Shown piece by piece: positions 1,506 through 64,000 of a stretch of 64,000 nt of DNA. The DNA comes from Candidatus Omnitrophota bacterium (GTDB lineage Bacteria; Omnitrophota; Gorgyraeia; 2-01-FULL-45-10), in NCBI GenBank assembly GCA_041648975.1, contig JBAZNZ010000004.1, positions 1,779 to 65,778 on the forward strand, in the 5' to 3' direction. Position 1 is the first letter of the stretch; the number at the start of each line of letters is the position of its first letter. The notes under the pieces are model-generated. The model was not told where the DNA came from. It was given only the letters and a program-made list of their open reading frames with translations, and did not search any database. The translations under genes and the position numbers were made by a program.

Positions 1506-2687
1506 CTAAATTTTTACCGCCCTCTTCGCCTCATCGTAAACAGACTTTAACGGAACTTTCTTTTTGCGCGCGAGCTTCACGCATTCGTCGTATTCGGGCG
1601 ACGCCGTGAGGATGCCTTCCGGGCCGCTCGACAGCTTCACCGTAATATTGCCGTATTTTGTCTTTACAGAGGTGGATGCGCGCTCAAGCTTTAGCCTGTC
1701 CGCTTCATAATATCGAAGGCCTATGGCGGTACTCTCACTGAATATCGCCGACGATATACGCCCTATCAGGCGAGGCTCAGCCAGGACAGTCAACTTGAAC
1801 GCCGGTCTCGTTTTCTTCATCTGGATCGTCGTCGTGTAGACATCCAGCGCGCCTTCTTTGAACAATTTTTCAAACAGATATTCGAAACTCTGGGGGCTCA
1901 TGTCATCGATATTAGTTTCTATAACGAATATCCTGTCTTCAATGAAAGATGGCTGGGTCTCGCCTATGAGGACGCGAAGCATGTTCGGCCTCGTCTCCAA
2001 CACCCTCGTCCCGGCGCCGTAACCTATACTCGAGATCTTCATCTGCGGTATACTGCCGAAACCTTTCGAGAGCGTCTTCAATATGCCGGCCCCGGTCGGC
2101 GTTACGAGTTCGGCTTCTATCTCTGAAATATTAAGAGGGACGCCTTTTAGTAGTTCCAGCGTCGCCGGCGCCGGTATCGGCAGGACGCCGTGCTTAGAAT
2201 TGACGAATGTCCTACCCAGACTTATCTTCGACGAATAGACGGCTTCTATGCCGAGTTCATCGAGTGCTATCGCGGCGCCGACGATGTCTATAATGGAATC
2301 GATGTCGCCGAGCTCGTGCAGCCGCAAGTCGCTCGACTTACTTACCCCGTGGATCCCGGCCTCGGAGCTTCCTATATTTGTGAATATCGCTTTCGCGCTA
2401 TCTTTGACCTTCGCGCCCAATGAACTGTTGTCGATTATCAAGAATATCTCTTTTATGGAACGGTGCGAATGGCCCGCCGATCCGGTTACAACGCATTCAA
2501 ATCTTGTCCCGCTGATCCCGCCCCGCATCGCCTTAGTCTTCTTTAACTCATAACCCCTAAGCTTAAGCTTCCCGAGAGCTTTGGTAAGAGCGTCGAAATT
2601 GAGCCCGGCGTCGAGTAACGCAGCGATGGTCATGTCGCCCGATATGCCCGAGAAACAGTCGAAATAAGCAACTTTCATAATAAACAT
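1506..2687 (-). CDS. larC: Nickel-pincer cofactor biosynthesis protein LarC (nickel insertase, DUF111 family)
   Basis: N-terminus MKVAYFDCFSGISGDM and overall length are typical of LarC/DUF111. Confidence 0.85.
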   Translation of the reverse strand: MFIMKVAYFDCFSGISGDMTIAALLDAGLNFDALTKALGKLKLRGYELKKTKAMRGGISGTRFECVVTGSAGHSHRSIKEIFLIIDNSSLGAKVKDSAKAIFTNIGSSEAGIHGVSKSSDLRLHELGDIDSIIDIVGAAIALDELGIEAVYSSKISLGRTFVNSKHGVLPIPAPATLELLKGVPLNISEIEAELVTPTGAGILKTLSKGFGSIPQMKISSIGYGAGTRVLETRPNMLRVLIGETQPSFIEDRIFVIETNIDDMSPQSFEYLFEKLFKEGALDVYTTTIQMKKTRPAFKLTVLAEPRLIGRISSAIFSESTAIGLRYYEADRLKLERASTSVKTKYGNITVKLSSGPEGILTASPEYDECVKLARKKKVPLKSVYDEAKRAVKI

Positions 2688-2691
2688 CCCT

Positions 2692-2741
2692 TGAATGTTA
2701 CGTAAGGTTATAGAACGTTAATTAAGGTTACGTAAGGTTAC
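2692..2741. repeat. 10-bp-period repeat array, left arm (GTTACGTAAG-type units x5) flanking the Avd-like gene
   Basis: gttacgtaag|gttatagaac|gttaattaag|gttacgtaag|gttac. Confidence 0.8.
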
Positions 2742-3187
2742 TTTCGAAATTTCTCTCCCGGTACCTTCCATGTCCCTTCCCGTTCCATCTTATATAGCGA
2801 TTTCATAAATTGATTTGCCATATATGTAGCACTCTGAAACATTCTTGAAAACTCATCAAACTCTTCATTTGATATCAGACCATCTTCAAGGCAATCTTCG
2901 ATATCGCCACTTAACTCTTCTAATGATCCAAGGCTAATTTTTATGCTATGACTATATTCTCCTACAGTTCCCTTTCTGTAACCTTCGCGTATATTTTGTT
3001 TTGCACTTCTAGCGGCGTCTCGCATCTGAGAAACCAATCTAAAATGATTCTTAGAAAATCTTTCTGTTAAATTATGAATAATCTTGCGTATTTGACAAAT
3101 ATCCTGATAAAATTTCAAATTTTCATAAGCTGGCTTTCGCCATCGTCGCTGTAACCTTACGGAACCTTCTCTAACCTTACGTAACAT
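2738..3187 (-). CDS. Four-helix-bundle protein (23S rRNA intervening-sequence protein / Avd-like family, TIGR02436)
   Basis: The YENLKFYQ...IREGY motif pattern is typical of this family. The Arg-rich N-terminal 19 aa are encoded by the flanking repeat array. Confidence 0.8.
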   Translation of the reverse strand: MLRKVREGSVRLQRRWRKPAYENLKFYQDICQIRKIIHNLTERFSKNHFRLVSQMRDAARSAKQNIREGYRKGTVGEYSHSIKISLGSLEELSGDIEDCLEDGLISNEEFDEFSRMFQSATYMANQFMKSLYKMEREGTWKVPGEKFRK

Positions 3188-3197
3188 TATGTAACCT
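3151..3197. repeat. 10-bp-period repeat array, right arm (inverted AACCTTAC-type units), overlaps the start of the Avd-like CDS
   Basis: gtaaccttac|ggaaccttct|ctaaccttac|gtaacattat|gtaacct, which is the reverse complement of the left-arm units. Confidence 0.8.
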
Positions 3198-3936
3198 ACC
3201 TATTGACCAGACTCGCGAAATACGCCGCTCCAAAACCGTTATCGATGTTCACTACCGCCACCCCCGGAGAGCAGCAGTTCATCATCGTAAGAAGCGGCGC
3301 GAGCCCGCCGAAAGAAGCGCCGTAACCCACGCTCGTCGGGACCGCTATGACCGGCTTAGAGACGAGCCCGCTCACTACGCTGGCCAACGCGCCCTCCATC
3401 CCCGCTATCACTATGATCACGCTCGAGCGCTCCAGTTCGGCCTTCTTATCGAGAAGCCTGTGGAGGCCCGCCACGCCAACGTCATACAACATCTTAACCC
3501 TGTTGCCCATAAGCTCGAGAGTGACTCTCGCTTCTTCGGCAACCGGCATATCGGCAGTGCCCGCTGTTATCACCAGCACCTCGCCTTTTTTAAACACAGG
3601 CCTGGCCCTGCAATAGCTTATCGCGTTCGCGTCTTTATCGAATCTGGCTTTGGGGCACGTCTTCTTGAGCAGGCGATAGACTTCTTCGTTTGTGCGGGTC
3701 ACGAGCAGGATGCCGTCGTGGGCTATAATGCGTTTGGCTATTTTAATAATCTGGGCCGGCGTCTTCCCTTTACCGAACACTACCTCGGGAAAGCCGCGGC
3801 GAAGGCTCCTGTGGTTATCGATCTTGGCAAATCCGAGATCCTGGTAGGGAAGGTCCTTCAAGCGCGCGAGCGCCTCGCATACGGAGACGCGGCCCGACTT
3901 CAAATTATTCAAAACCTTACTGATCTTTTCGGTCAT
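3196..3936 (-). CDS. larB: Nickel-pincer cofactor biosynthesis protein LarB (PurE-like carboxylase/hydrolase)
   Basis: PurE/AIR-carboxylase-like C-terminal half (VIIVIAGMEGALASVVSGL...PVIAVPTSVGYG) plus a LarB-type N-terminal domain. Confidence 0.85.
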   Translation of the reverse strand: MTEKISKVLNNLKSGRVSVCEALARLKDLPYQDLGFAKIDNHRSLRRGFPEVVFGKGKTPAQIIKIAKRIIAHDGILLVTRTNEEVYRLLKKTCPKARFDKDANAISYCRARPVFKKGEVLVITAGTADMPVAEEARVTLELMGNRVKMLYDVGVAGLHRLLDKKAELERSSVIIVIAGMEGALASVVSGLVSKPVIAVPTSVGYGASFGGLAPLLTMMNCCSPGVAVVNIDNGFGAAYFASLVNR

Positions 3937-10215: not shown

Positions 10216-10221
10216 ATCATA

Positions 10222-10280
10222 ATTGTGTAATGTTTATTGTGTAAAGTGTAATGCAAGTTTAATGTTTTATTGTGTAACGG
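10222..10280. repeat. TGTGTAA heptamer array, left arm flanking Avd-like gene 2
   Basis: tgtgtaa tgtttat tgtgtaa agtgtaa ... tgtgtaacgg, then GGAAAATT. Confidence 0.8.
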
Positions 10281-10284
10281 AAAA

Positions 10285-10656
10285 TTATACAGACGCTATA
10301 AGCTTCCCGAGCATATTACATATATGGATACAATTTTGTCTCAGTCCCGTGTGGCGCTGTTCTGAAATAATATTTTGCCTGGCCAGTATAGTCAGCATAG
10401 GAATACATTCTCGTGCAGAATTCAAAGAGATGCGATAGAATTGAGTCTTTTCTCTCTTCGATAATTTACCACTGCCCTCTGCCATATTATTAACTATCGA
10501 TAGAGATGCTCTGCGTAATTGATCCGCCAGGGAGAATTGGTAATCCCGCGGCAATTCTTTTGTCACATTAAATATATCCTGCACAAATTCTAATCCCATC
10601 CCATACACTTTTAATCTTTCAAAATCAAATATATATAGTTCTTTTTCATTATACAT
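10285..10656 (-). CDS. Four-helix-bundle protein (23S rRNA IVS / Avd-like family), second copy
   Basis: Family pattern (FERLKVYGMGLEFVQDIF ... NMAEGSGK). Sits exactly between two inverted TGTGTAA arrays. Confidence 0.8.
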   Translation of the reverse strand: MYNEKELYIFDFERLKVYGMGLEFVQDIFNVTKELPRDYQFSLADQLRRASLSIVNNMAEGSGKLSKREKTQFYRISLNSARECIPMLTILARQNIISEQRHTGLRQNCIHICNMLGKLIASV

Positions 10657-10667
10657 AGCAACATTCC

Positions 10668-10704
10668 ACCATCATTACACATTACACCTTACACATTACA
10701 CAAA
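10668..10704. repeat. TTACACA heptamer array, right arm flanking Avd-like gene 2
   Basis: cattacac attacac cttacac attacac aaat. Confidence 0.8.
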
Positions 10705-12146
10705 TCTGGCTTTCTTCTATGGTGTTCTGTCGACTGCTCAAACGCGTACGCCGCGCGCAATATCGTCTCTTCATCGAACGCCTTCCCTATCACCTGCAGC
10801 CCTATCGGGAGCCCCGCCTTAGTGAAACCGCACGGCACCGATATCGCGGGAAGCCCCGCCAGGTTCGCGGGAATAGTAAATACGTCCGAGAGATACATGC
10901 TTATCGGGTCTTCGGACCTTTCTCCGATCTTAAACGCGGCTGTAGGCGACGTCGGAGTGACGATGCAGTCGCAGTTATTCTCAAAAGCCTTCTCAAAATC
11001 CTCTTTAATCTTCGTCCTGACTTTCAAGGCTTTCACATAATACGCGTCGTAGTAACCCGTCGAAAGGCAATAGGTCCCGAGAAGGATCCTGCGCTTAGCC
11101 TCATCGCCGAAACCCTGCGAGCGCGTTTTGATATACATATCTATCATGTCTTTCGGGTCTTCCGCGCGGAGCCCATATTGGACGCCGTCGAAACGCGCGA
11201 GGTTCGAGCTCGCCTCTGCCGGACCGATAATATAGTAAGTGCTGACCGCGTATTCGGTGTGCGGCAGGCTTATCTCTACGATCCTGGCGCCGAGGCCTTT
11301 CAACACCTCAATGGCTCCCCTCACGCCTTTTTCTACCTCTTCCTCGATACCCTTTATGAAATATTCTTTCGGGACGCCGAGGCGCATCCCTTTTATGTCT
11401 TTGACGAGCGACTTCGTGTAGTCAGGCACCGGCGCGTCGACAGACGTTGAATCCATCTCATCGTGGCCCGCGATCACGCCAAGGAGAAGCGCGGCGTCCT
11501 CCACGTCCTTTGTTATCGGCCCTATCTGGTCTAGGCTGGAGGCGAACGCAATGAGCCCGTAACGGGAGACCCTGCCGTATGTCGGCTTCATACCGACGAC
11601 CCCGCAGAGGCTCGCGGGCTGTCGTATAGATCCGCCCGTGTCGGAACCGAGGGCGAGTATCGTCTCATCGGAGGCGACTGCCGCGGCGCATCCTCCGCTC
11701 GAACCGCCGGGGATCCTGTTAATATCCCACGGGTTCTTCGTCGGACCGTAGCAGGACGTCTCGCATGACGAGCCGAACGCGAACTCGTCCATGTTCGCCT
11801 TCCCTATCAGGATCGCGCCCTCTTCGTTCATCTTCCTGATCACGGTCGCGTCGTACGGCGGCTTGAAGCCTTTCAATATCCTCGAGCAGCAAGTCGTCTC
11901 TTCTCCCAGGACGCACATATTGTCTTTTACCAGGACCGGGATGCCGGAGAGCCTCCCGCGCTTATTGGCCTGGGTCTTTGCGCGCTCGACCGCCTTCTCC
12001 TTGCCCGGAAGCGCGAATGCCCTGATGCTCGGCTCGACAGCGCTTATCCTGTCGAAAAGCTCGTCGACTATCTTAGACGGCTGCAACCCTTCGCCGCTGA
12101 TCAGTTTTTTCAGTTCATGGGCCGTCAATGAATACAATTTTTCCAT
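10689..12146 (-). CDS. gatA: Glu-tRNA(Gln) amidotransferase subunit A
   Basis: Amidase signature GGSSGG...SLDQIGP, full length, between gatC and gatB. Confidence 0.95.
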
Positions 12147-12497: not shown

Positions 12498-12545
12498 AAT
12501 ATTATTACCTTTTGATATACCTTACCACAGTATATCGAGAATGTC

Positions 12546-12563
12546 AAATTTGCGTGCAAATTT
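12546..12563. promoter_or_regulatory. Palindromic operator-like site 1 upstream of gatC (AAATTTGC-GT-GCAAATTT), overlapping a TTGACA -35
   Basis: Perfect 8-bp arms with a 2-nt spacer. Minus strand reads ...aaatTTGACAttc. Confidence 0.4.
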
Positions 12564-12568
12564 GATAC

Positions 12569-12607
12569 TGAGGCATCGAAAAAAATGCGACTAGCGAGAG
12601 CATTTTT
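12569..12607 (-). terminator. Hairpin between the two operator-like sites (possible rsmA terminator or attenuator)
   Basis: ggcatcGAAAAAAATGCgactagcgagaGCATTTTTAgatgcc: 8-bp inner stem plus 6-bp outer stem. Weak U-tract. Confidence 0.25.
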
Positions 12608-12626
12608 AGATGCCGAAGTATCTTTA

Positions 12627-12646
12627 AAATTTGCGTGTAAATTTGG
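12627..12646. promoter_or_regulatory. Palindromic operator-like site 2 (AAATTTGCGTGTAAATTTGG), near-direct repeat of site 1, 80 bp away
   Basis: aaatttgcgtgtaaattt differs from site 1 (aaatttgcgtgcaaattt) by one substitution (C to T). Lies at the rsmA stop. Confidence 0.35.
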
Positions 12647-12648
12647 TA

Positions 12649-13488
12649 TCAATCGATTGAGTTCGCGATCCGCGCGAAGTCGGCGAGGCTTAAAGATTCC
12701 GGCCGGGAGGCCGGATCTACGGCTATCTTTTCTAATATCGAGGAAAGGCGCTCTTTTGGGATGCCGAGGACCTCTTCCCTGGAGAGGGAATTTATTATCG
12801 ACTTGCGCCTCTGGTTAAAAGATCCTCTTATGACCTTAAAAAGCGCTCCGTCATCCTTCGCCTCTACGGAAGGCCTGTCCAGGATATCGAGCCTTACCAG
12901 GCTTGAATCGATGTCAGGCGACGGATAAAAAGACGTCCTCTTTATTTTGTATATATGCTTTGGTCTTGTATAGTATTGGATAAAACAGCTGAGCGAGCTG
13001 TAATCTTTCGCGCCCGGTTCTGCCAGGATGCGGTCGGCAAACTCTTTCTGGACCACCATCACCACATATTTTATCGACAATCTGTTATCGATCAGGCACT
13101 CGATGATCGGGGTCGTGATATAATACGGCAGGCACCCCACCACTTTAAGCTTGCCCGCGGCGGAGGCCTTTTTGATGTCGAATTTCAATATGTCTTCGTT
13201 AAAGATACGCAGGCTGGGAAAGTCGTCTCCGATTATCTCTTCAAGTATGCCGTATGCCTTCTTATCCTTTTCCACCGCGGTCACGGCCGCGCCGGAACGC
13301 GCGAGGTCTATCGTAAGCGCGCCAAGCCCCGGGCCTATCTCCAGGACTCTATCGCCGGATAAGGCGCCCGCCTCGGATATTATCTTATCCCTTATATTCC
13401 CATCGATGAGATAGTTCTCTCCAAGCCTCTTCAAAGGCCTGAATCCGTATTTCGCAAACACTTCTTTTAGCTGAGTCTTGGTTAACAT
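12649..13488 (-). CDS. rsmA: 16S rRNA (adenine1518/1519-N6)-dimethyltransferase
   Basis: KRLGENYLID...LEIGPGLGALT KsgA/RsmA motifs. Confidence 0.95.
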   Translation of the reverse strand: MLTKTQLKEVFAKYGFRPLKRLGENYLIDGNIRDKIISEAGALSGDRVLEIGPGLGALTIDLARSGAAVTAVEKDKKAYGILEEIIGDDFPSLRIFNEDILKFDIKKASAAGKLKVVGCLPYYITTPIIECLIDNRLSIKYVVMVVQKEFADRILAEPGAKDYSSLSCFIQYYTRPKHIYKIKRTSFYPSPDIDSSLVRLDILDRPSVEAKDDGALFKVIRGSFNQRRKSIINSLSREEVLGIPKERLSSILEKIAVDPASRPESLSLADFARIANSID

Positions 13489-18387: not shown

Positions 18388-18409
18388 ATATCATGCAGGA
18401 AACACCTTT

Positions 18410-18536
18410 GTTTAATGTGTAAAGTGTAATGTGTAATGCCGGTGTAATGTATGCATGTGTAATGGAAAATTCTCTTCCATTACACAATTAACCCTTACAC
18501 CCACTTTACACATTACACATCAAACATTACACAAAG
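18410..18536. repeat. Palindromic TGTGTAA/TTACACA array with no gene at its centre (empty site), between mfd-like and argS
   Basis: Centre catgtgtaatggaaaattctcttccattacacaat, flanked by inverted heptamer units. Confidence 0.85.
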
Positions 18537-18557
18537 GAATCATTTTTAGCGGTCACA

Positions 18558-20964: not shown

Positions 20965-21546
20965 TTAAGTATATAGCTTACCCTCCAATATGTAGTCCCT
21001 TACCTTTGCCGGGACCAGATACCTTATGGACCTGCCCTCTTTCAGGCGTTTCCTTATGTCTTCTGAAGACACCTCTATCGGGGTTATGACAACGGTCTCA
21101 ACGTCCTCGGGGACCTCTTTCACCGGATATCCGGGCCTGTTGGCCACTATGAACTTCGACATCTTGAATATACCGTCTATATCCTTCCACGAAAATAGGT
21201 CTTTCAGCAAGTCCGAGCCTGTTATGAAATATAGCTGCGCTTTATCCCCGTAGATCCTCCTGAACTCCTTTAATGTATCTATTGAATACGATTTTTTCTT
21301 GGAATCGATCTCAAAAGTGGATACTTCAAAGGCGGGATTGCCCTCGATGGCAAGCTCGACCATCTTCAGTCGGTCCTGCGGCCGTATCTTCACATCCATA
21401 TTCTTGTGCGGTGGTATAAAAGCAGGGACGAATATGACCTTATCGAGCTTTATCTTATGGAGGGCGTCTTCAGCCAATATCAGGTGCCCCATATGTATAG
21501 GATTGAATGTGCCGCCGAGTATACCTATTCTCATAGCTAACTCCAT
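20965..21546 (-). CDS. nadD: Nicotinate-nucleotide adenylyltransferase
   Basis: GILGGTFNPIHMGH nucleotidyltransferase motif. Confidence 0.9.
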   Translation of the reverse strand: MELAMRIGILGGTFNPIHMGHLILAEDALHKIKLDKVIFVPAFIPPHKNMDVKIRPQDRLKMVELAIEGNPAFEVSTFEIDSKKKSYSIDTLKEFRRIYGDKAQLYFITGSDLLKDLFSWKDIDGIFKMSKFIVANRPGYPVKEVPEDVETVVITPIEVSSEDIRKRLKEGRSIRYLVPAKVRDYILEGKLYT

Positions 21547-21550
21547 TATA

Positions 21551-21652
21551 GTTATAAGTTGTAAGTCGTAAGTTGTAAGCGAATTGTATATAACTTATAA
21601 CTTATAACTTATAACTTACAACTTATAACTTATAACTTATAACTTACAACTA
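21551..21652. repeat. Palindromic TTGTAAG/CTTATAA heptamer array between nadD and proA; supplies the proA stop codon
   Basis: ttataag ttgtaag tcgtaag ttgtaag cg | aattgtatat | aacttat aacttat aacttac ... aacttac aac TAC(tag stop). Confidence 0.85.
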
Positions 21653-22906
21653 CTTTCTCACCTGCCCGCTGCCGTACACCACATACTTATATGACGTCAG
21701 TTCCTCAAGTCCCATGGGCCCTCTGGCGTGTATCTTATCCGTAGATATGCCCATCTCCGCGCCTTTGCCGAATTCGCCGCCGTCGGTAAAACGCGTCGAC
21801 GCATTGACATAGACGCAGGCTGAATCCACTTCCCGCAGGAACTTATCCGCTCTGGCCTTGTTCCTCGTGACTATGGCGTCGGAATGGTATGAGCCGTACT
21901 TCATTATATGCCGGATGGCCTCATCCACATCCCTGACCACCTTTACCGAGAGTTTCAGATCCAGATACTCCCTGTACCAGTCATCCTCTGTAGCCAGTTT
22001 CACGCAGTCTACCAGATCTTTGACTTCTTTAGAGCCCCTTATCTCGACACCGGAATTTTTGAGCCTTCTTATCATTTTGGGGAGGAAGCTGCCGGCGATC
22101 TTCCTATTCACAAGCATGCATTCCATGGCGTTGCATACCCCGGGCCTTTGGACCTTTGCGTTATAGCATATCTCTTCCGCCATCTTGAGATCAGCGCTTT
22201 CATCGACATAGGTATGGCACACGCCTTTGTAATGTTTGATGACCGGTATCCTCGAATTTCTCGTAACTTCCCTTATCAAAGACTCTCCGCCTCTTGGTAT
22301 GACAAGGTCTATCAGGCCTTCCTGTTTAAGCAGCCGATCGACGAGGCCCCTGTCCTTATCCTTGATCATCGATATCGAGTCCGCAGGTATATTGCATTTA
22401 ACAAGCGCCTTCCGCAGGACGTCGAATATCGCTATGTTAGAATTAAGCGACTCGCTGCCGCCGCGCAGTATGACAGCGTTAGAGGACTTCAAACACAACC
22501 CGATACAATCGCTGGTAACATTAGGTCTCGACTCATAGATGATAAGAATGACGCCTATAGGGACCCTGACCTTCTTTATCAGGAGGCCGTTAGGCCTTCT
22601 TATGGTATCTATGATATCTCCGACGGGATCCTTAAGCTTCGATATCTTCAAAAGCGAATCTGCCATCGACCTTATCCTCGCGTCCGTAAGCGTCAATCTG
22701 TCTATAAGCGCGGAAGACATTTTTTTTGCGCGGGCCATGGCCAGATCCTTACGATTCCGGGAAATAACGAATCTCGCGTTCTTTACCAACGCCGCGGCCA
22801 TAGCCTCAAGCGCCCTATTTTTGGACTTCGTATTCGCAAGCGCAAGGGCTCTGGAAGAAGCCTTAGCCTTTTCACACAATCTTTTTATATCGTTATTTTT
22901 TGCCAT
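21650..22906 (-). CDS. proA: Glutamate-5-semialdehyde dehydrogenase
   Basis: ProA family length and motifs; proB-proA synteny. Confidence 0.95.
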   Translation of the reverse strand: MAKNNDIKRLCEKAKASSRALALANTKSKNRALEAMAAALVKNARFVISRNRKDLAMARAKKMSSALIDRLTLTDARIRSMADSLLKISKLKDPVGDIIDTIRRPNGLLIKKVRVPIGVILIIYESRPNVTSDCIGLCLKSSNAVILRGGSESLNSNIAIFDVLRKALVKCNIPADSISMIKDKDRGLVDRLLKQEGLIDLVIPRGGESLIREVTRNSRIPVIKHYKGVCHTYVDESADLKMAEEICYNAKVQRPGVCNAMECMLVNRKIAGSFLPKMIRRLKNSGVEIRGSKEVKDLVDCVKLATEDDWYREYLDLKLSVKVVRDVDEAIRHIMKYGSYHSDAIVTRNKARADKFLREVDSACVYVNASTRFTDGGEFGKGAEMGISTDKIHARGPMGLEELTSYKYVVYGSGQVRK

Positions 22907-24984: not shown

Positions 24985-25215
24985 TTACTTGGAGGCTTTT
25001 ACAATATTGACGATCTTGCCCGGAGTGAAATTAACCTTGCCGTCGACCAACGCGAATAGCGTGCCGTCCCTGCCGATACCTACGTTCCTGCCGGCCTTAA
25101 AGACGAAACCGCGCTGCCTCAATATGATATTGCCGGCCTTCACAGACTGGTTCCCGTACTTCTTTACGCCTAACGTCTGCGGCTGGCTGTCTCTGCCGTT
25201 AACTACGTGAGCCAT
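24985..25215 (-). CDS. rpmA: 50S ribosomal protein L27, N-terminal tail about 6 aa shorter than canonical
   Basis: [23 protein letters not shown]..., versus canonical MAHKKG(G/V)GS(T/S)RNGRDS. SD AAGGA 8 nt upstream confirms the start. Confidence 0.9.
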
Positions 25216-25233: not shown

Positions 25234-25284
25234 TCAAATGTTACGTAATGTTATGTAAGGTTCATTAAGGTTACGTAACGTTAC
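25234..25284. repeat. 10-bp-period GTTAC-type array (single arm, 5 units) between rpmA and rplU, abutting the rplU stop
   Basis: caaatgttac|gtaatgttat|gtaaggttca|ttaaggttac|gtaacgttac|tag. Confidence 0.8.
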
Positions 25285-25607
25285 TAGCTCCCTTTTCCTG
25301 CTTCTATTTCCTTAACCTTCAGCTTCAGGACATTCTGCCTGTGGCCTATCTTCTTCTTCTCGCTCTTGCGCTTTTTGTATTTAAACGCGACTACCTTATC
25401 CTGTCTTATCATGCCAAGGACCTCGCACACCACATGAGATCCCTTAACATGAGGGTTCCCTATATGGAGCGAGTTGCCGTCCTTTACCATCAATACCGTG
25501 TTAAGCTTTACCTCGCCGCCCTTCTTAGCGGCCAGTTTCTCAACCAGGATTATGTCGTTCTTGGCTACTTTGTATTGCTTACCGCCTGTCTCTATCACTG
25601 CGTACAT
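25284..25607 (-). CDS. rplU: 50S ribosomal protein L21
   Basis: MYAVIETGGKQYKV start. Confidence 0.95.
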   Translation of the reverse strand: MYAVIETGGKQYKVAKNDIILVEKLAAKKGGEVKLNTVLMVKDGNSLHIGNPHVKGSHVVCEVLGMIRQDKVVAFKYKKRKSEKKKIGHRQNVLKLKVKEIEAGKGS

Positions 25608-47587: not shown

Positions 47588-47705
47588 CTTTTCAACTCCA
47601 TTAAGCCTCGCCTAAACCTAAGCACTGAAAATATTTCCCATTAATTTTTCGGGTCCCCGCCTGCCAGCGAGAGACTGCTTCAGGCGGGCAGGCTGCCGCG
47701 GCTTG

Positions 47706-47740
47706 GACTTTTTCTTTTAAAGGGCTCGTATGGGTTTACA
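47706..47740. repeat. Outer inverted repeat, left copy (IR-L), of the DUF3800 segment
   Basis: GACTTTTTCTTTTAAAGGGCTCGTATGGGTTTACA is the reverse complement of 49222-49257 (33/35 identical). Confidence 0.85.
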
Positions 47741-47747
47741 AACTGTA

Positions 47748-47779
47748 GTCGTAGGGGAGGTTTAAACCTCCCCTACGAC
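47748..47779. repeat. Perfect 32-bp palindrome (14-bp stem, TTAA loop) immediately inside IR-L
   Basis: GTCGTAGGGGAGGTTTAAACCTCCCCTACGAC. Confidence 0.9.
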
Positions 47780-47828
47780 ATAAGCGCGTATCTATATGCC
47801 CGAACTATTCTCTTCTGTATTCGGGACA

Positions 47829-47935
47829 CCCCATCCCTGCCCGCCAGACTTAGCTTGCTGCGATCAGGCGGGCATACTTCGCCCTTTATCGAGAAAAAGT
47901 CTGGAAGGAGCGTCACCCGTAAAAAATTCCCACCC
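47829..47935. repeat. Inner repeat copy B: GC hairpin (TGCCCGCC...GGCGGGCA) plus core motif CGCCCTTTATCGAGAAAAAGTCTGGAAGGAGCGTCACCCGTAAAAAATTCC
   Basis: Direct-orientation copy of the core motif shared with IR-R. A related hairpin (CCCGCCTG...CAGGCGGG) lies at 47655-47690 next to IR-L. Confidence 0.75.
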
Positions 47936-48152
47936 CACTTCCTTTTGCCGGCCAGGTTCGCTTTTCGCTCACCTGGCCGTCCTCCAACCTGCTTCCCACA
48001 AAGACCTAATATTATTCCCGCCCGGAAACATACGCGGGGCGGGATCCCGCCTCGCGTTAGATTCTAGGCGGGACAATGTGCTCACATAACGTCGGCTTAG
48101 GTTTTTAGCACTAAATTAACGTCCTTATAGGTCATCCCTACGAGATCATATT

Positions 48153-48947
48153 TCAATTATTGCCTATAGTCTTTTGCTCAATGTTTTCTGCTTGAGTAAA
48201 ATATTTTGATAAATTTGCAGTAAAAAATCTATTATTTTTTTGAAATATCTTTTTGAATTCGCTCTCTTTATCCTTTTTATAATATTTTCTGAATCCATTT
48301 GCGAGAGAATGGGCCATCTTCACGCAATATTCTGAATCATCTGCTTCTGAGATACTAACTACTAGCGCTTCTTCGCCCTTAAAATAAGGGGCGTTTGCAT
48401 ACCTGTTAACAGCTTTTGATACCCCCCGCAGTCTTTCATCTATCCACCTTCTCGCTTGCTCCTCAATTATTTCACGTTCTCTAATTTTTAATGAATATCT
48501 GTCGTATTTTATAAAAATATTATTTATTCTTTCTTTACAAGACACAATATCAAATATTGAATGTACAAGCGTCAAGCCATACGAAACTAGCCATACATAA
48601 TTATTTAAGGATGATATTTCTTTATTATTAAGCAAACTACTATTTTTTCGAGCCTCATATGCCTTGATAATAATATCACGGATTTTAGAATCGCTAAAAT
48701 TATAATATACGACATTAGCATACAATCTATGTCTCGTTAATATATCATTTAACATAATAAGATCATTATAAGAAGCTCCGCTTTTTCGTTCACAAAATTT
48801 ATATTGTTCTTTTTCTAATAACTCAACGTTTCCCCCGAGGTGACTTATTACAGCAAAACAAAAACAATTATCCTCTTGCTCTAACTCCTTATATCCTGAT
48901 TCATCACTAAAACAATATAGAGGATTACCTACGATCGCATCATTCAT
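48153..48947 (-). CDS. DUF3800-like hypothetical protein on an AT-rich insert
   Basis: N-terminal PLYCFSDESGY resembles the DUF3800 hh.DESG start. Composition is strongly AT-rich relative to flanks. Own promoter-like TTGATG-16-TATTAT. Confidence 0.55.
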   Translation of the reverse strand: MNDAIVGNPLYCFSDESGYKELEQEDNCFCFAVISHLGGNVELLEKEQYKFCERKSGASYNDLIMLNDILTRHRLYANVVYYNFSDSKIRDIIIKAYEARKNSSLLNNKEISSLNNYVWLVSYGLTLVHSIFDIVSCKERINNIFIKYDRYSLKIREREIIEEQARRWIDERLRGVSKAVNRYANAPYFKGEEALVVSISEADDSEYCVKMAHSLANGFRKYYKKDKESEFKKIFQKNNRFFTANLSKYFTQAENIEQKTIGNN

Positions 48948-49012
48948 TATTATTCACCATATCTTAATTGTACACCGTCTTTACTAAAATATTTAACCAG
49001 TTATTTGGATAA

Positions 49013-49040
49013 ATAATATCTATTACTAAGAAAGCATCAA
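49013..49040 (-). promoter_or_regulatory. Candidate promoter of the DUF3800 gene (TTGATG-16-TATTAT)
   Basis: Minus strand reads cTTGATGctttcttagtaatagaTATTATttatcc, with an AT-rich leader and SD GGTGA. Confidence 0.35.
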
Positions 49041-49060
49041 GTTCGCGCTGCTTCTATATG

Positions 49061-49140
49061 AAAATTTTTACGGGTGATGCTCCTTCCAGACTTTTTCTCG
49101 ATAAGGGCGAAGTTTGGGATGGGGCAGTACAGATACGCGC
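49061..49140. repeat. Inner repeat copy D, an inverted and partly deleted copy of the 47780-47935 segment
   Basis: aaaatttttacgggtgatgctccttccagactttttctcgataagggcgaag...gggatggggcag..agatacgcgc is the reverse complement of ...gcgcgtatct...ccccatccc...cttcgccctttatcgagaaaaagtctggaaggagcgtcacccgtaaaaaatt. Confidence 0.8.
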
Positions 49141-49221
49141 ACAGAATATACCTTAATGTCATGACTTCAGTGTCAAGTTAGACCGTTATCTACACCTTTT
49201 AGTATAAAGAAATAGGGAGAT

Positions 49222-49257
49222 TGTAAACCCCAAACGAGCCCTTTAAAAGAAAAAGTC
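49222..49257. repeat. Outer inverted repeat, right copy (IR-R), of the DUF3800 segment
   Basis: TGTAAACCCCAAACGAGCCCTTTAAAAGAAAAAGTC. Confidence 0.85.
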
Positions 49258-49330
49258 GAAGGAGCAGCAGGACCCGTAAAAATTTGATTCCACATAGGCA
49301 ACTGCCCGCAAGTTCCACGCGGACTGAGAT

Positions 49331-55892: not shown

Positions 55893-55986
55893 CGTAATTA
55901 AGCGATTCTATGATCAAACCGACTTTGGCGATTAAGTGATTAAGTCTTACTTAATCACTTAATAACTTAATCGCTTAATCACTTAC
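55893..55986. repeat. Palindromic GATTAAG/CTTAATC array between aroA and rluD
   Basis: cgtaattaagcgatt ... gcgattaag tgattaag tc ttac ttaatca cttaata acttaatc gcttaatc acttac. Confidence 0.85.
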
Positions 55987-56006
55987 ATGTTGCCATACTG
56001 ATAATA

Positions 56007-62289: not shown

Positions 62290-62307
62290 CTCTTATAAAT
62301 GGAGGTT

Positions 62308-62410
62308 CCGTAAGGTTAGCGAAAGTTAATTAATGTTACGTAAGGTTACATCTCTAACTATATTTAACCTTACGTAACCTTCTCTAACTTTACGTAACAT
62401 TACGTAACCT
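62308..62410. repeat. Palindromic 10-bp-period array (4 GTTA-type units + 6 TAAC-type units) with no gene at its centre, between mtnP and yggT
   Basis: ccgtaaggtta|gcgaaagtta|attaatgtta|cgtaaggtta|c atct ctaac|tatatttaac|cttacgtaac|cttctctaac|tttacgtaac|attacgtaac. Confidence 0.85.
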
Positions 62411-62416
62411 CATTAC

Positions 62417-62755
62417 TTACCCCAACCTCACCGCGATACCAAACAGCGTCCTTATCAAGAATAACTTCAGGAACCAGATAAATATCAGAGCGAATATAGG
62501 CGAGATATCAAGACCTATAGAATAGGCCGGTATGATCCTCCTGAACGGCGCCAGAAGCGGCTCGGTAGTCTTGGTCAGGAATTGGACTATTACGTTATAC
62601 GGGTCAGGGTTGACCCAGCTTATCAATGCCCTTATGATTATCAGCCAGTTAGCTATAGTCAGTATGTAATCTAATATGGTAGTCACGGCAAATAAAAGGT
62701 TACCGACAGCGAACATATACATCACCTCCTGGATAGCTCTTTGGAGCGCTTGCAT
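62417..62755 (-). CDS. yggT: YggT-family membrane protein
   Basis: YggT pattern (LLxxLLxxYxxLIIIRALLSW). Annotated start overlaps proC by 34 nt; the real start is probably the internal Met (MYMF). Confidence 0.7.
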   Translation of the reverse strand: MQALQRAIQEVMYMFAVGNLLFAVTTILDYILTIANWLIIIRALISWVNPDPYNVIVQFLTKTTEPLLAPFRRIIPAYSIGLDISPIFALIFIWFLKLFLIRTLFGIAVRLG

Positions 62756-63552: not shown

Positions 63553-63616
63553 TAAGTCAGCGATTAAGTATTAATTTTTATCACTTAATCGCTTAATTGC
63601 TTAATCACTTAATCAC
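63553..63616. repeat. Palindromic GATTAAG/CTTAATC array between proC and yggS
   Basis: gcgattaag tattaa ttttta tcacttaatc gcttaat tgcttaatc acttaatc ac. Confidence 0.8.
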
Positions 63617-63627
63617 AAAACTACGCC

Positions 63628-64000
63628 TCACTCCCCAAAAATCGCCCTTCCTATCCTAACCATTGTCGACCCCTCTTCTATGGCAACCTCGAAGTCATTG
63701 GTCATGCCCATGGATAATAGCTGTAAGCTGTAAGCTGTAAGCTGTAAGTTATTGATTTGGTCGAGCAACTGCTTGAGAGCGCGAAAATAAGGTCTTGCCT
63801 TCTCAGGATCGTCCGAATCCGGCGCTATTGTCATAAAACCTCTAACATTTATATTAGGATATAATAATAGAGTTTTAAAAAACTCTATTGTATCCTCAGG
63901 CCTTATCCCGAATTTCGTTCCTTCGCCCGACACATTAACCTGTATCAATATATCCTGGACCTTGTCCAGCTTAGACGCCTCTTTGTCTATTTCCTGGGCG
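63628..64000 (-). CDS. yggS: YggS-family PLP homeostasis protein, C-terminal part (N-terminus beyond the window end)
   Basis: ...ILIQVNVSGE...LSMGMTNDFEVAIEEGSTMVRIGRAIFG matches the YggS C-terminus. Frame stays open to position 64000. Confidence 0.8.
   Translation of the reverse strand, partial: AQEIDKEASKLDKVQDILIQVNVSGEGTKFGIRPEDTIEFFKTLLLYPNINVRGFMTIAPDSDDPEKARPYFRALKQLLDQINNLQLTAYSLQLLSMGMTNDFEVAIEEGSTMVRIGRAIFGE
63721..63748. repeat. Perfect (CTGTAAG)x4 heptamer tandem repeat inside the yggS coding sequence
   Basis: ctgtaagctgtaagctgtaagctgtaag, which encodes LQLTAYSLQL on the minus strand in place of the usual short G-L-x-L-D linker. Confidence 0.9.

Follow-up and report, generated by a model that had tools for sequence, protein, structure and literature searches.

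The 64,000-nt stretch of a Candidatus Omnitrophota metagenome-assembled genome analysed here (the window, to which all coordinates refer) carries, between the genes larB and larC, a compact cassette made of a gene for a four-helix-bundle (4HB) protein and two flanking arrays of short repeats. All three genes are encoded on the minus strand, and larC and larB were identified by domain search. Each array, hereafter called an arm, is a run of about 50 nt of short repeated units, and the whole cassette occupies approximately 510 nt (Table 1). Read on the sense strand, the 5′ arm comprises the units aGGTTAC ataatGTTAC gtaagGTTAG agaagGTTCC gtaagGTTAC (on the plus strand, GTAACcttac GGAACcttct CTAACcttac GTAACattat GTAACct). 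The 3′ arm reads tgaatGTTAC gtaagGTTAT agaacGTTAA ttaagGTTAC gtaagGTTAC on the plus strand. The larB stop codon TAG (3196-3198) abuts the 5′ arm, which contains the 4HB start codon ATG (3185-3187) and a Shine-Dalgarno (SD)-like GGTAGG. The 4HB stop codon TAA sits within the first GTAAC core of the 3′ arm. The start codon of larC follows 15 nt beyond the end of this arm, and the larC SD (AAGGGA) lies outside the element. An initial annotation of the window had placed the 4HB gene between larC and larB with five units on its left and five inverted units on its right, and the coordinates agree with that description.

Table 1. Coordinates of the larB-larC element, its neighbours and related features in the window.
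Feature	Position	Strand	Description
larC	1506-2687	-	PF01969
3′ arm	2692-2741	-	five decamer units, inverted complement of 5′ arm
4HB gene, 149 aa	2738-3187	-	PF05635 / TIGR02436
5′ arm	3151-3197	-	five ~10-nt units, GTTAC core
larB	3196-3936	-	PF00731
Solo arm, 3′-arm type	25237-25285	-	five units, 88% identical to 2694-2742
Gene-less copy, decamer family	62302-62411	-	arms homologous to larB-larC element
Sister heptamer element	10216-10708	-	4HB-2 gene between gatA and gatB
4HB-2 gene	10285-10656	-	PF05635, E 1e-27; 23% identical to first 4HB protein
Gene-less abutting-arm copy, heptamer lineage	13499-13649		
Gene-less abutting-arm copy, heptamer lineage	18400-18537		

The arms are partly complementary to each other. 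A repeat search of the window gave 87% complementarity between 2694-2731 and 3151-3188, arm-arm complementarity overall amounts to 78-87% over 38-45 nt, and the arms pair in the minimum-free-energy fold of the full element (z -3.2). The motif GTAAGGTTAC, allowing at most one mismatch, occurs 13 times in the window versus 2.06 expected, a count reached in none of 100 shuffles, and all but one of these matches fall within three decamer loci, namely the larB-larC element, 25237-25285 and 62302-62411. Chains of at least four GTT cores at 9-11 nt spacing arise at 0.02 per shuffled window. No promoter or terminator belonging to the cassette itself was found above shuffle expectation. The arms matched no Rfam family, either in the whole window at the gathering threshold or in 2600-3300 at E <= 1. 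Rfam likewise detected no rRNA in the window, and the element thus lacks a location in helix 25 or 45 of 23S rRNA. PADLOC returned no defence-system match. A CRISPR array, which would require repeats of at least 20 nt and unique spacers, was rejected, as the repeats here have a period of 10 nt and no spacers.

The two other decamer loci in the window consist of arms only. At 62302-62411, a 3′-type arm (62302-62349) is joined to a 5′-type arm (62364-62411) by a loop of about 14 nt containing a sixth, degenerate unit. This locus is flanked by the yggT stop codon (62417-62419) and by the SD and start (62289) of a phosphorylase gene, and is predicted to fold into an imperfect hairpin of about 48 bp (-43.6 kcal/mol, z -6.9). 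It had been annotated as an empty site (62308-62410) of four plus six units parted by ATCT; the unit count has to be corrected to five plus five, and the genuine empty larB-larC junctions described below measure 6-8 nt and have no arms. We instead regard it as a non-autonomous, gene-less copy, similar to a miniature inverted-repeat transposable element (MITE) or to the doublets of repetitive extragenic palindromic (REP) sequences called REPINs. The single five-unit arm annotated between rpmA and rplU was found as well. It is of the 3′-arm type, directly follows the rplU stop codon (TAG, 25284-25286) upstream of rpmA, and reads as a remnant or half copy. Domain searches confirmed the neighbour names YGGT, L27 and L21; the gene named mtnP belongs to the phosphorylase superfamily (PNP_UDP_1), which is consistent with that name without proving it. 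Regions 2694-2742 and 62302-62350 are 84% identical, 3152-3208 and 62365-62421 are 86% identical, and the arms at the three loci share unit-specific variants. As identity of 84-88% extends over the whole ~50 nt, the arms are homologous as entire sequences, beyond merely having a unit in common.

The 4HB protein matches PF05635 ('23S rRNA-intervening sequence protein', E 2e-18) and TIGR02436 ('four helix bundle protein', E 2e-16), and Pfam and NCBIfam detect no transposase (DDE, HUH/Y1) or other domain in it. Its conserved core begins at residue 20 (AYENLKFYQ). The AlphaFold (AF2) model has a pLDDT of 89 and shows a four-helix bundle with a disordered, arm-encoded N-terminus; residues 1-14 are modelled with low confidence (pLDDT < 50), and the N-terminus is variable among homologues. 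The initial annotation had assigned the N-terminal 19 residues to the right arm, which holds for about the first 12, while codons 13-19 lie just on the inner side of the arm. Downstream of the arm ATG (3187), no in-frame ATG, GTG or TTG occurs before the conserved helix 1, so the arm-encoded N-terminus is probably translated. Compared with four homologues, the 4HB gene has a proportion of synonymous differences (pS) of 0.73-0.85, which is saturated, and a proportion of nonsynonymous differences (pN) of 0.11-0.18. Saturated pS with low pN indicates an old, functional protein under strong purifying selection, and the arms have been retained over the same time span that saturates synonymous sites.

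The best matches in the PDB are Xcc0516 (2gsc, TM score 0.9), BT_0352 (2rld) and Avd (4dwl, 8ub7), and each of these four entries was deposited with five chains, A-E. Xcc0516 is a homopentameric toroid (PMC4990558). Avd forms a pentameric barrel in which a single RNA stem-loop is contacted by each of the five protomers, and bases flipped out of the RNA insert between protomers (10.1101/2023.10.23.563531). Avd belongs to diversity-generating retroelements (DGRs), and a DGR remnant or component in which the 4HB protein acts as Avd would account for the homologous fold and for a weak similarity (E 1e-5) to the PHROG family 'Avd protein of DGR'. We consider this highly improbable. The gene list shows no reverse transcriptase gene within 10 kb of the 4HB gene, the genes called there being an rRNA methylase, gatCAB, a protease, tsaD, mgtC, bactofilin, helix-turn-helix (HTH), larB, larC and PDZ genes, and a whole-window repeat search found no template/variable repeat pair near it. 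Sequence similarity to Avd is marginal, the sequence is much nearer to the non-DGR protein Xcc0516, and the same architecture recurs in dozens of loci with housekeeping neighbours only. The label 'Avd-like' given initially is thus appropriate at the level of the fold and does not extend to a reverse transcriptase or to template and variable repeats.

Close relatives of the 4HB protein number in the hundreds, with cores 60-84% identical. Many begin with MLRKV, MLQKVTKVT or similar residues and end in RNLT, RNFR or the like; these termini are translated arm units. We scanned homologues using one genome per species and collected 64 loci of the decamer-type 4HB subfamily from bins of Omnitrophota, Planctomycetota, Edwardsbacteria, Saganbacteria/WOR-1, Bacteroidota, Ignavibacteria, Ratteibacteria and Saccharibacteria. 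In nearly all of the loci, GTT-core units precede the gene on the sense strand and complementary units follow it. The mode is exactly five units in either arm (upstream in 27 and downstream in 28 of the 64), and control windows contain mostly one or two units. Spacing between units is 10 nt in 298 cases and 9 nt in 79, and the count of five is kept at 9-, 10- or 12-nt spacing. Within one element, the ten units share an element-specific consensus, with 0.61-0.66 identity at variable positions versus 0.25 for random. The proposal that gene and inverted arms form a discrete element is therefore borne out, since GTTAC decamer arms accompany this 4HB subfamily in loci of many phyla. Slippage easily creates short tandem repeats, and the arrays could in principle have arisen by chance or local slippage independently of the gene. 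The chance of this is practically negligible: it is refuted by the excess of motif matches and the rarity of chained cores in shuffles, by the 84-88% identity of arms at different loci and in different genomes, unit-specific variants included, and by the association of arms with the gene across the 64 loci.

Comparison of insertion sites indicates that the element is mobile on an evolutionary time scale. Among about 60 loci, the neighbouring genes fall into 50 upstream and 51 downstream clusters. Where the neighbours are co-directional, the 4HB gene points in the same direction in all cases (50/50), and the gaps separating it from them consist essentially of the arms alone. In at least 17 of 41 loci, the distance from the upstream stop codon to the first core is 0-10 nt, and in six more a core overlaps the end of the upstream ORF. 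The 4HB stop codon is the TAA of a 3′-arm core in 27 of 59 loci. Four relatives share the gene order tsaD-mgtC-bactofilin-HTH-larB-larC-PDZ with the window. In three genomes (L083, L086 and L087), the larB-larC junction measures 6-8 nt from stop to start, for example TAA GGATCT ATG, and has no arms. A homologous cassette occupies, in L084/L085, the exact larB-larC point used in the window. In both occupied genomes, the element starts at the base after the larB stop codon (TAG followed by GTTAC, TAA followed by GGTTAC), leaving the length of LarB unaltered. The five LarC sequences are equidistant (60-69% identity), and such star-like distances require either two insertions at this junction or several precise losses. 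The nearest relative of LarC is at most 70% identical, the best relative of the 4HB protein is 84% identical, and a 4HB protein from Edwardsbacteria, a different phylum, is 77% identical. No consistent target-site duplication was found at the window, L084 and L110 junctions, where the ends are ambiguous because a stop codon followed by an SD resembles the unit TAAGG.

Placement exactly between a stop codon and the next SD might also be expected of a host-beneficial intercistronic module. Such arrays, with or without the protein, would tune operon expression through stabilising hairpins, autoregulation or translational uncoupling, the last by means of stop codons in all frames and SD-like AAGG/GAGG motifs. 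The long-term purifying selection on the 4HB protein would suit this explanation, and so would the units as read, which contain TAA in both orientations as well as SD-like purine runs. We nevertheless hold it to be quite improbable, as orthologous junctions function with 6-8 nt and no array, the same cassette is found in about 50 unrelated contexts, different array families occupy one junction (proA-nadD) in different genomes, and variants with 9-nt spacing cannot provide stops in three frames. Across the loci, the gene travels together with its arms, and this combined unit has entered many unrelated intercistronic junctions. In our judgement, the element is very probably a selfish cassette that is mobile on an evolutionary time scale and has non-autonomous derivatives.

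Gene-less derivatives are also frequent elsewhere. A metagenome scan with an exact pattern for the inner part of an arm found 33 loci, about 14 of which are arm-loop-arm palindromes (5 + 5 units, loops of 10-16 nt); the 4HB gene is present in only one. The initial annotation had asked whether further copies exist and whether the arrays are ordinary spacers conserved in relatives. Besides the three copies in the window, seven gene-less copies occur on five long contigs of one related metagenome, and the arrays are absent from orthologous spacers of relatives. Two gene-less copies in L110 are nearly identical, loop included, in unrelated flanks, from which it follows that the gene-less form is copied as a unit. 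Since the two arms can be distinguished, the orientation of gene-less copies could be determined. Of the gene-less GTTAC palindromes in the window and in L090-L115, 11-12 of 13-14 have the same orientation relative to the flanking genes, with the same arm on their downstream side. Such uniformity is unexpected for a near-palindrome and suggests strand-specific insertion. Transcription and replication direction are inseparable as causes of the bias, because nearly all genes here lie on one strand (56 of the 64 long ORFs of the window are on the minus strand). In viral contigs, the pattern GTTAC(N5)GTTAC(N5)GTTAC gave 120 matches, none with a 4HB gene, i.e. chance matches, and a profile scan for the 4HB protein found no relative; these scans provide no evidence for carriage by phages. 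A Y1 transposase was considered as the driver of movement and rejected, since the only example found, in L084, is flanked by unrelated GGGGACGTGTC hairpins, an arrangement resembling REPs with their associated tyrosine transposases (RAYTs).

The closest known system is the S23p-encoding intervening sequence (IVS) of 23S rRNA, of the Leptospira, Coxiella burnetii and Xanthomonas/Brucella type, with which the element shares the PF05635 protein. In both, the ORF lies within terminal inverted repeats that have the potential to pair as a stem, is directly preceded by short tandem repeats, and is sense-oriented in the host transcript without a promoter of its own. The Coxiella IVS is described as a selfish element with 3-4 tandem GACAGAT heptamers, strain-variable in copy number, just before the S23p ORF, and its terminal inverted repeats make up a 28-bp stem that is cut by RNase III (PMC4990558). 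The same source quotes an old idea that the IVS ORF serves mobility. The systems differ in location, as IVSs reside in 23S helix 25 or 45 and the elements described here between protein genes (larB-larC, gatA-gatB). They differ further in the regular five-unit arms of ~10-nt units and the dispersed gene-less copies seen here, and in the strong purifying selection on the ORF, whereas the Coxiella ORF is decaying. Excision by RNase III is known for IVSs, whereas here a stem is only predicted. We regard the element as a candidate IVS-type element outside rRNA.

These parallels raise a purely RNA-level IVS model, in which the arms are a double-stranded RNA stem for RNase III excision that keeps the insertion harmless, the tandem units are a by-product of slippage, and the protein ignores the arms. 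RNase III excision has been reported for the Leptospira and Salmonella IVSs in addition to that of Coxiella (PMC4990558), the arms pair in the predicted folds, and the element is always sense-oriented inside operons. The pairing itself fits less well. Complementarity is only about 80%, and the mismatches, counted over 1485 pairs, comprise 71 of G-U type, 56 of A-C type and 154 others, i.e. they are mostly non-wobble and show no wobble excess. Mirror-partner units are barely more alike than non-partners (0.66 versus 0.61). Neither the persistence of five units across 9-, 10- and 12-nt spacing nor the retention of the core past synonymous saturation is predicted by the need for a stem alone. With the unit consensus kept and the pairing tests flat, the conserved quantity is the repeated unit and its number rather than base pairing as such. 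We therefore consider the RNA-level model unlikely, though less so than the host-beneficial one.

The reading that we favour, and think reasonably probable, is that of a selfish cassette without a promoter, in which the arms serve as repeated recognition units for the protein encoded by the cassette, probably a pentamer. It would be a cassette of the S23p-encoding 23S rRNA IVS kind lodged in the intercistronic spacer of a protein-coding operon. Each arm would offer five predicted recognition units to the 4HB protein of the element and, judging from homology to Xcc0516, BT_0352 and Avd, a single pentameric ring may bind a single five-unit arm. As substrate, a single strand or a hairpin seems most plausible, given that an RNA stem-loop is bound by the five protomers of Avd. 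The 4HB protein would act in trans on gene-less copies, and their strand bias would point to a single-stranded intermediate linked to replication or transcription. The arms supply the 4HB start codon and often the stop codon. In the operon transcript, they could pair into an imperfect stem of about 45 bp that hides the 4HB ribosome-binding site and that, by analogy with IVSs, is a likely RNase III substrate. Taken separately, the proposal that the arms are arrays of binding units for a pentameric protein seems to us nearly as plausible as not, erring towards doubt. A comparable binding mode is known from TRAP, whose 11-mer ring reads 11 (G/U)AG repeats on a wrapped single strand. As in TRAP, the number of regularly and closely spaced tandem units would equal the number of subunits, although the proteins are unrelated and the analogy concerns the binding mode only.

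Several points weigh against this interpretation. The link between five units and a pentamer amounts to a numerical coincidence combined with homology, and five is not universal, as in the heptamer lineage described below the unit number varies from about 3 to 14 per arm (L242, L245, L248). Double-stranded DNA at 10 bp per subunit cannot wrap a ring of this size, which makes the nature of the substrate a guess. The absence of wobble bias and the flat mirror-partner test imply that the stem is not clearly under selection. The case for mobility is comparative, as there is neither a recognised target-site duplication nor a known catalytic domain. In addition, several of the 'other phyla' are represented by metagenome bins, in which contigs may be mis-binned.

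Comparison with other mobile or repetitive systems shows partial likeness. In the REPIN-RAYT system, reportedly treated by Bertels and Rainey in 2011 and by Nunvar and colleagues in 2010, one gene is said to be flanked by inverted repeats that also form many gene-less doublets. As in that system, the gene here is flanked by the same inverted repeats as the short, hairpin-forming, gene-less doublets in intergenic spacers, and lineages with their own repeats coexist in one genome. Likeness to MITEs extends to dispersed short copies with inverted termini that are present or absent at orthologous sites. In contrast to both, the flanked gene encodes a four-helix bundle that lacks an HUH/Y1 or DDE transposase domain, each arm is a tandem array and not a single palindrome, and target-site duplication is not seen. 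With plasmid iterons, the arms share tandem direct repeats of about one helical turn that are presumed to bind protein; they differ in having no origin and no Rep initiator, and in occurring as inverted pairs, with or without a small gene, in chromosomal operons.

A second lineage of the same architecture is present in the window. The 4HB-2 gene between gatA and gatB is flanked by arms with GTGTAA(T/A) cores (10216-10284 and 10642-10708), and two gene-less copies accompany it (Table 1). In four other genomes, 4HB-2 homologues carry GTGTAAT/ATTACAC arms at the proA-nadD junction, between type II secretion system (T2SS) E and F genes, between cheA and cheB, and upstream of a gene of the ATP-synthase alpha/beta family (L241, at a contig end). 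More distant PF05635 genes (L067-L082), from Bacteroidales, Prevotella, Ignavibacteria, Desulfobacterales, Patescibacteria and others, are also bordered by inverted short tandem units as read from their sequences, the upstream sense-strand units being GGAGTAA, GGAGTTAG, AGGAGTCAG or GATTAAGG. The suggestion of two lineages, each with its own iteron, is supported insofar as each lineage has its own unit and the heptamer arms recur in other genomes; 'iteron' is a mere analogy, there being neither origin nor Rep. Considering the heptamer homologues, the arms of distant PF05635 genes and further arrays in the window and in L084, a unit specific to each lineage appears to be the rule for the PF05635 family.

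Several gene-less arrays of other unit types were observed. Between nadD (20965-21546) and proA (21650-22906), a palindrome at 21550-21660 is built of 7-nt units, AGTTATA/AGTTGTA followed by TATAACT about ten times. Another organism (L242-L244) has a 4HB-2 cassette with GTGTAAT arms at the same proA-nadD junction, and in Flavobacterium columnare gmk and nadD are separated by a four-helix-bundle gene (PMC5524665); the nadD upstream spacer may be targeted repeatedly. Two palindromes composed of 8-nt units (GATTAAGT and CTTAATCA) are present at 55930-55995 and 63560-63620, and a run of AGCTGTA heptamers at 63719-63752. The Bacteroidaceae PF05635 gene L069 has GATTAAGG/CCTTAATC arms, in view of which the octamer family may have a cognate gene at another place in the genome of the window. 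Three more palindromic arrays occur in L084 (360-1745 and 6055-6970), with GCGTTTGTA 5+5, AAAGTGT heptamers and GAGCACAGAT decamers; the corresponding spacers are only 10-17 nt long in L083/L086. Altogether, some ten palindromic arrays of short repeats are spread over the 64 kb of the window, approximately one every 6.5 kb, and these fill most of its intergenic spacers longer than 90 nt.

A broader generalisation is possible, which we offer tentatively and think rather less likely than its converse. PF05635 rings would be the sequence-reading part of widespread transposase-less mobile cassettes, each subfamily co-evolving with its own unit (GTTAC decamers, GTGTAAT heptamers, and GGAGTAA/GGAGTTA/GATTAAGG in Bacteroidota and others), with one ring per arm. 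The same generalisation includes strand-specific insertion at intercistronic junctions and at the tips of rRNA helices, and gene-less arm pairs mobilised in trans. If true, it would explain the 30-year-old puzzle of rRNA IVSs as well as what one of the largest uncharacterised protein families of bacteria does, and other intergenic short tandem repeats, such as the short tandemly repeated repetitive (STRR) heptamers of cyanobacteria, might perhaps be explained too. To our knowledge, S23p-carrying rRNA IVSs have been called selfish since 1993 without a mechanism being given, and we know of no function outside DGRs for PF05635/TIGR02436 proteins, which are very abundant and often multi-copy.

The anatomy described here, with five-unit inverted arms, subfamily-specific units, sense-only insertion after stop codons and gene-less derivatives, makes the role of the S23p/IVS protein directly testable. 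Predictions can be made about the stoichiometry of rings and repeats, the mobilisation of gene-less copies in trans and the processing of operon mRNAs by RNase III. For genome annotation, the arms create spurious N- and C-terminal protein extensions and can be mistaken for CRISPR-like or regulatory repeats, and the cassettes explain 'extra' genes in cas, che, gat, lar and secretion operons. PF05635 genes inside cas operons were noted in 2013 and left unexplained (PMC3936711); their occurrence fits the same putative insertion behaviour. The full-text literature searched, the coverage of which is incomplete, yielded mentions in connection with IVSs, DGRs and cas loci, and we found in it no description of five-unit arms, gene-less copies or intercistronic targeting.

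Three further features of the window were noted. Region 47693-49270 contains nested long inverted repeats (47693-47737/49226-49270 at 87%, 47883-47928/49062-49107 at 93%) that enclose a 264-aa ORF (48153-48947) without Pfam match. Within it, the 147 nt at 47785-47930 are 96% identical to a contig of another metagenome (L114), and the region probably represents a different mobile element. The spacer that separates ksgA/rsmA (12649-13488) from gatC contains, at 12498-12648, the palindrome CAAATTTGCGTG(C/T)AAATTTG twice; the two copies, at a distance of about 100 nt, look like operator sites. The N-terminal tail of ribosomal protein L27, rich in Lys and Gly, usually reaches the peptidyl-transferase centre. 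In the L27 gene of the window (24985-25215), the Pfam match starts at profile position 11, and this tail appears to be shortened.

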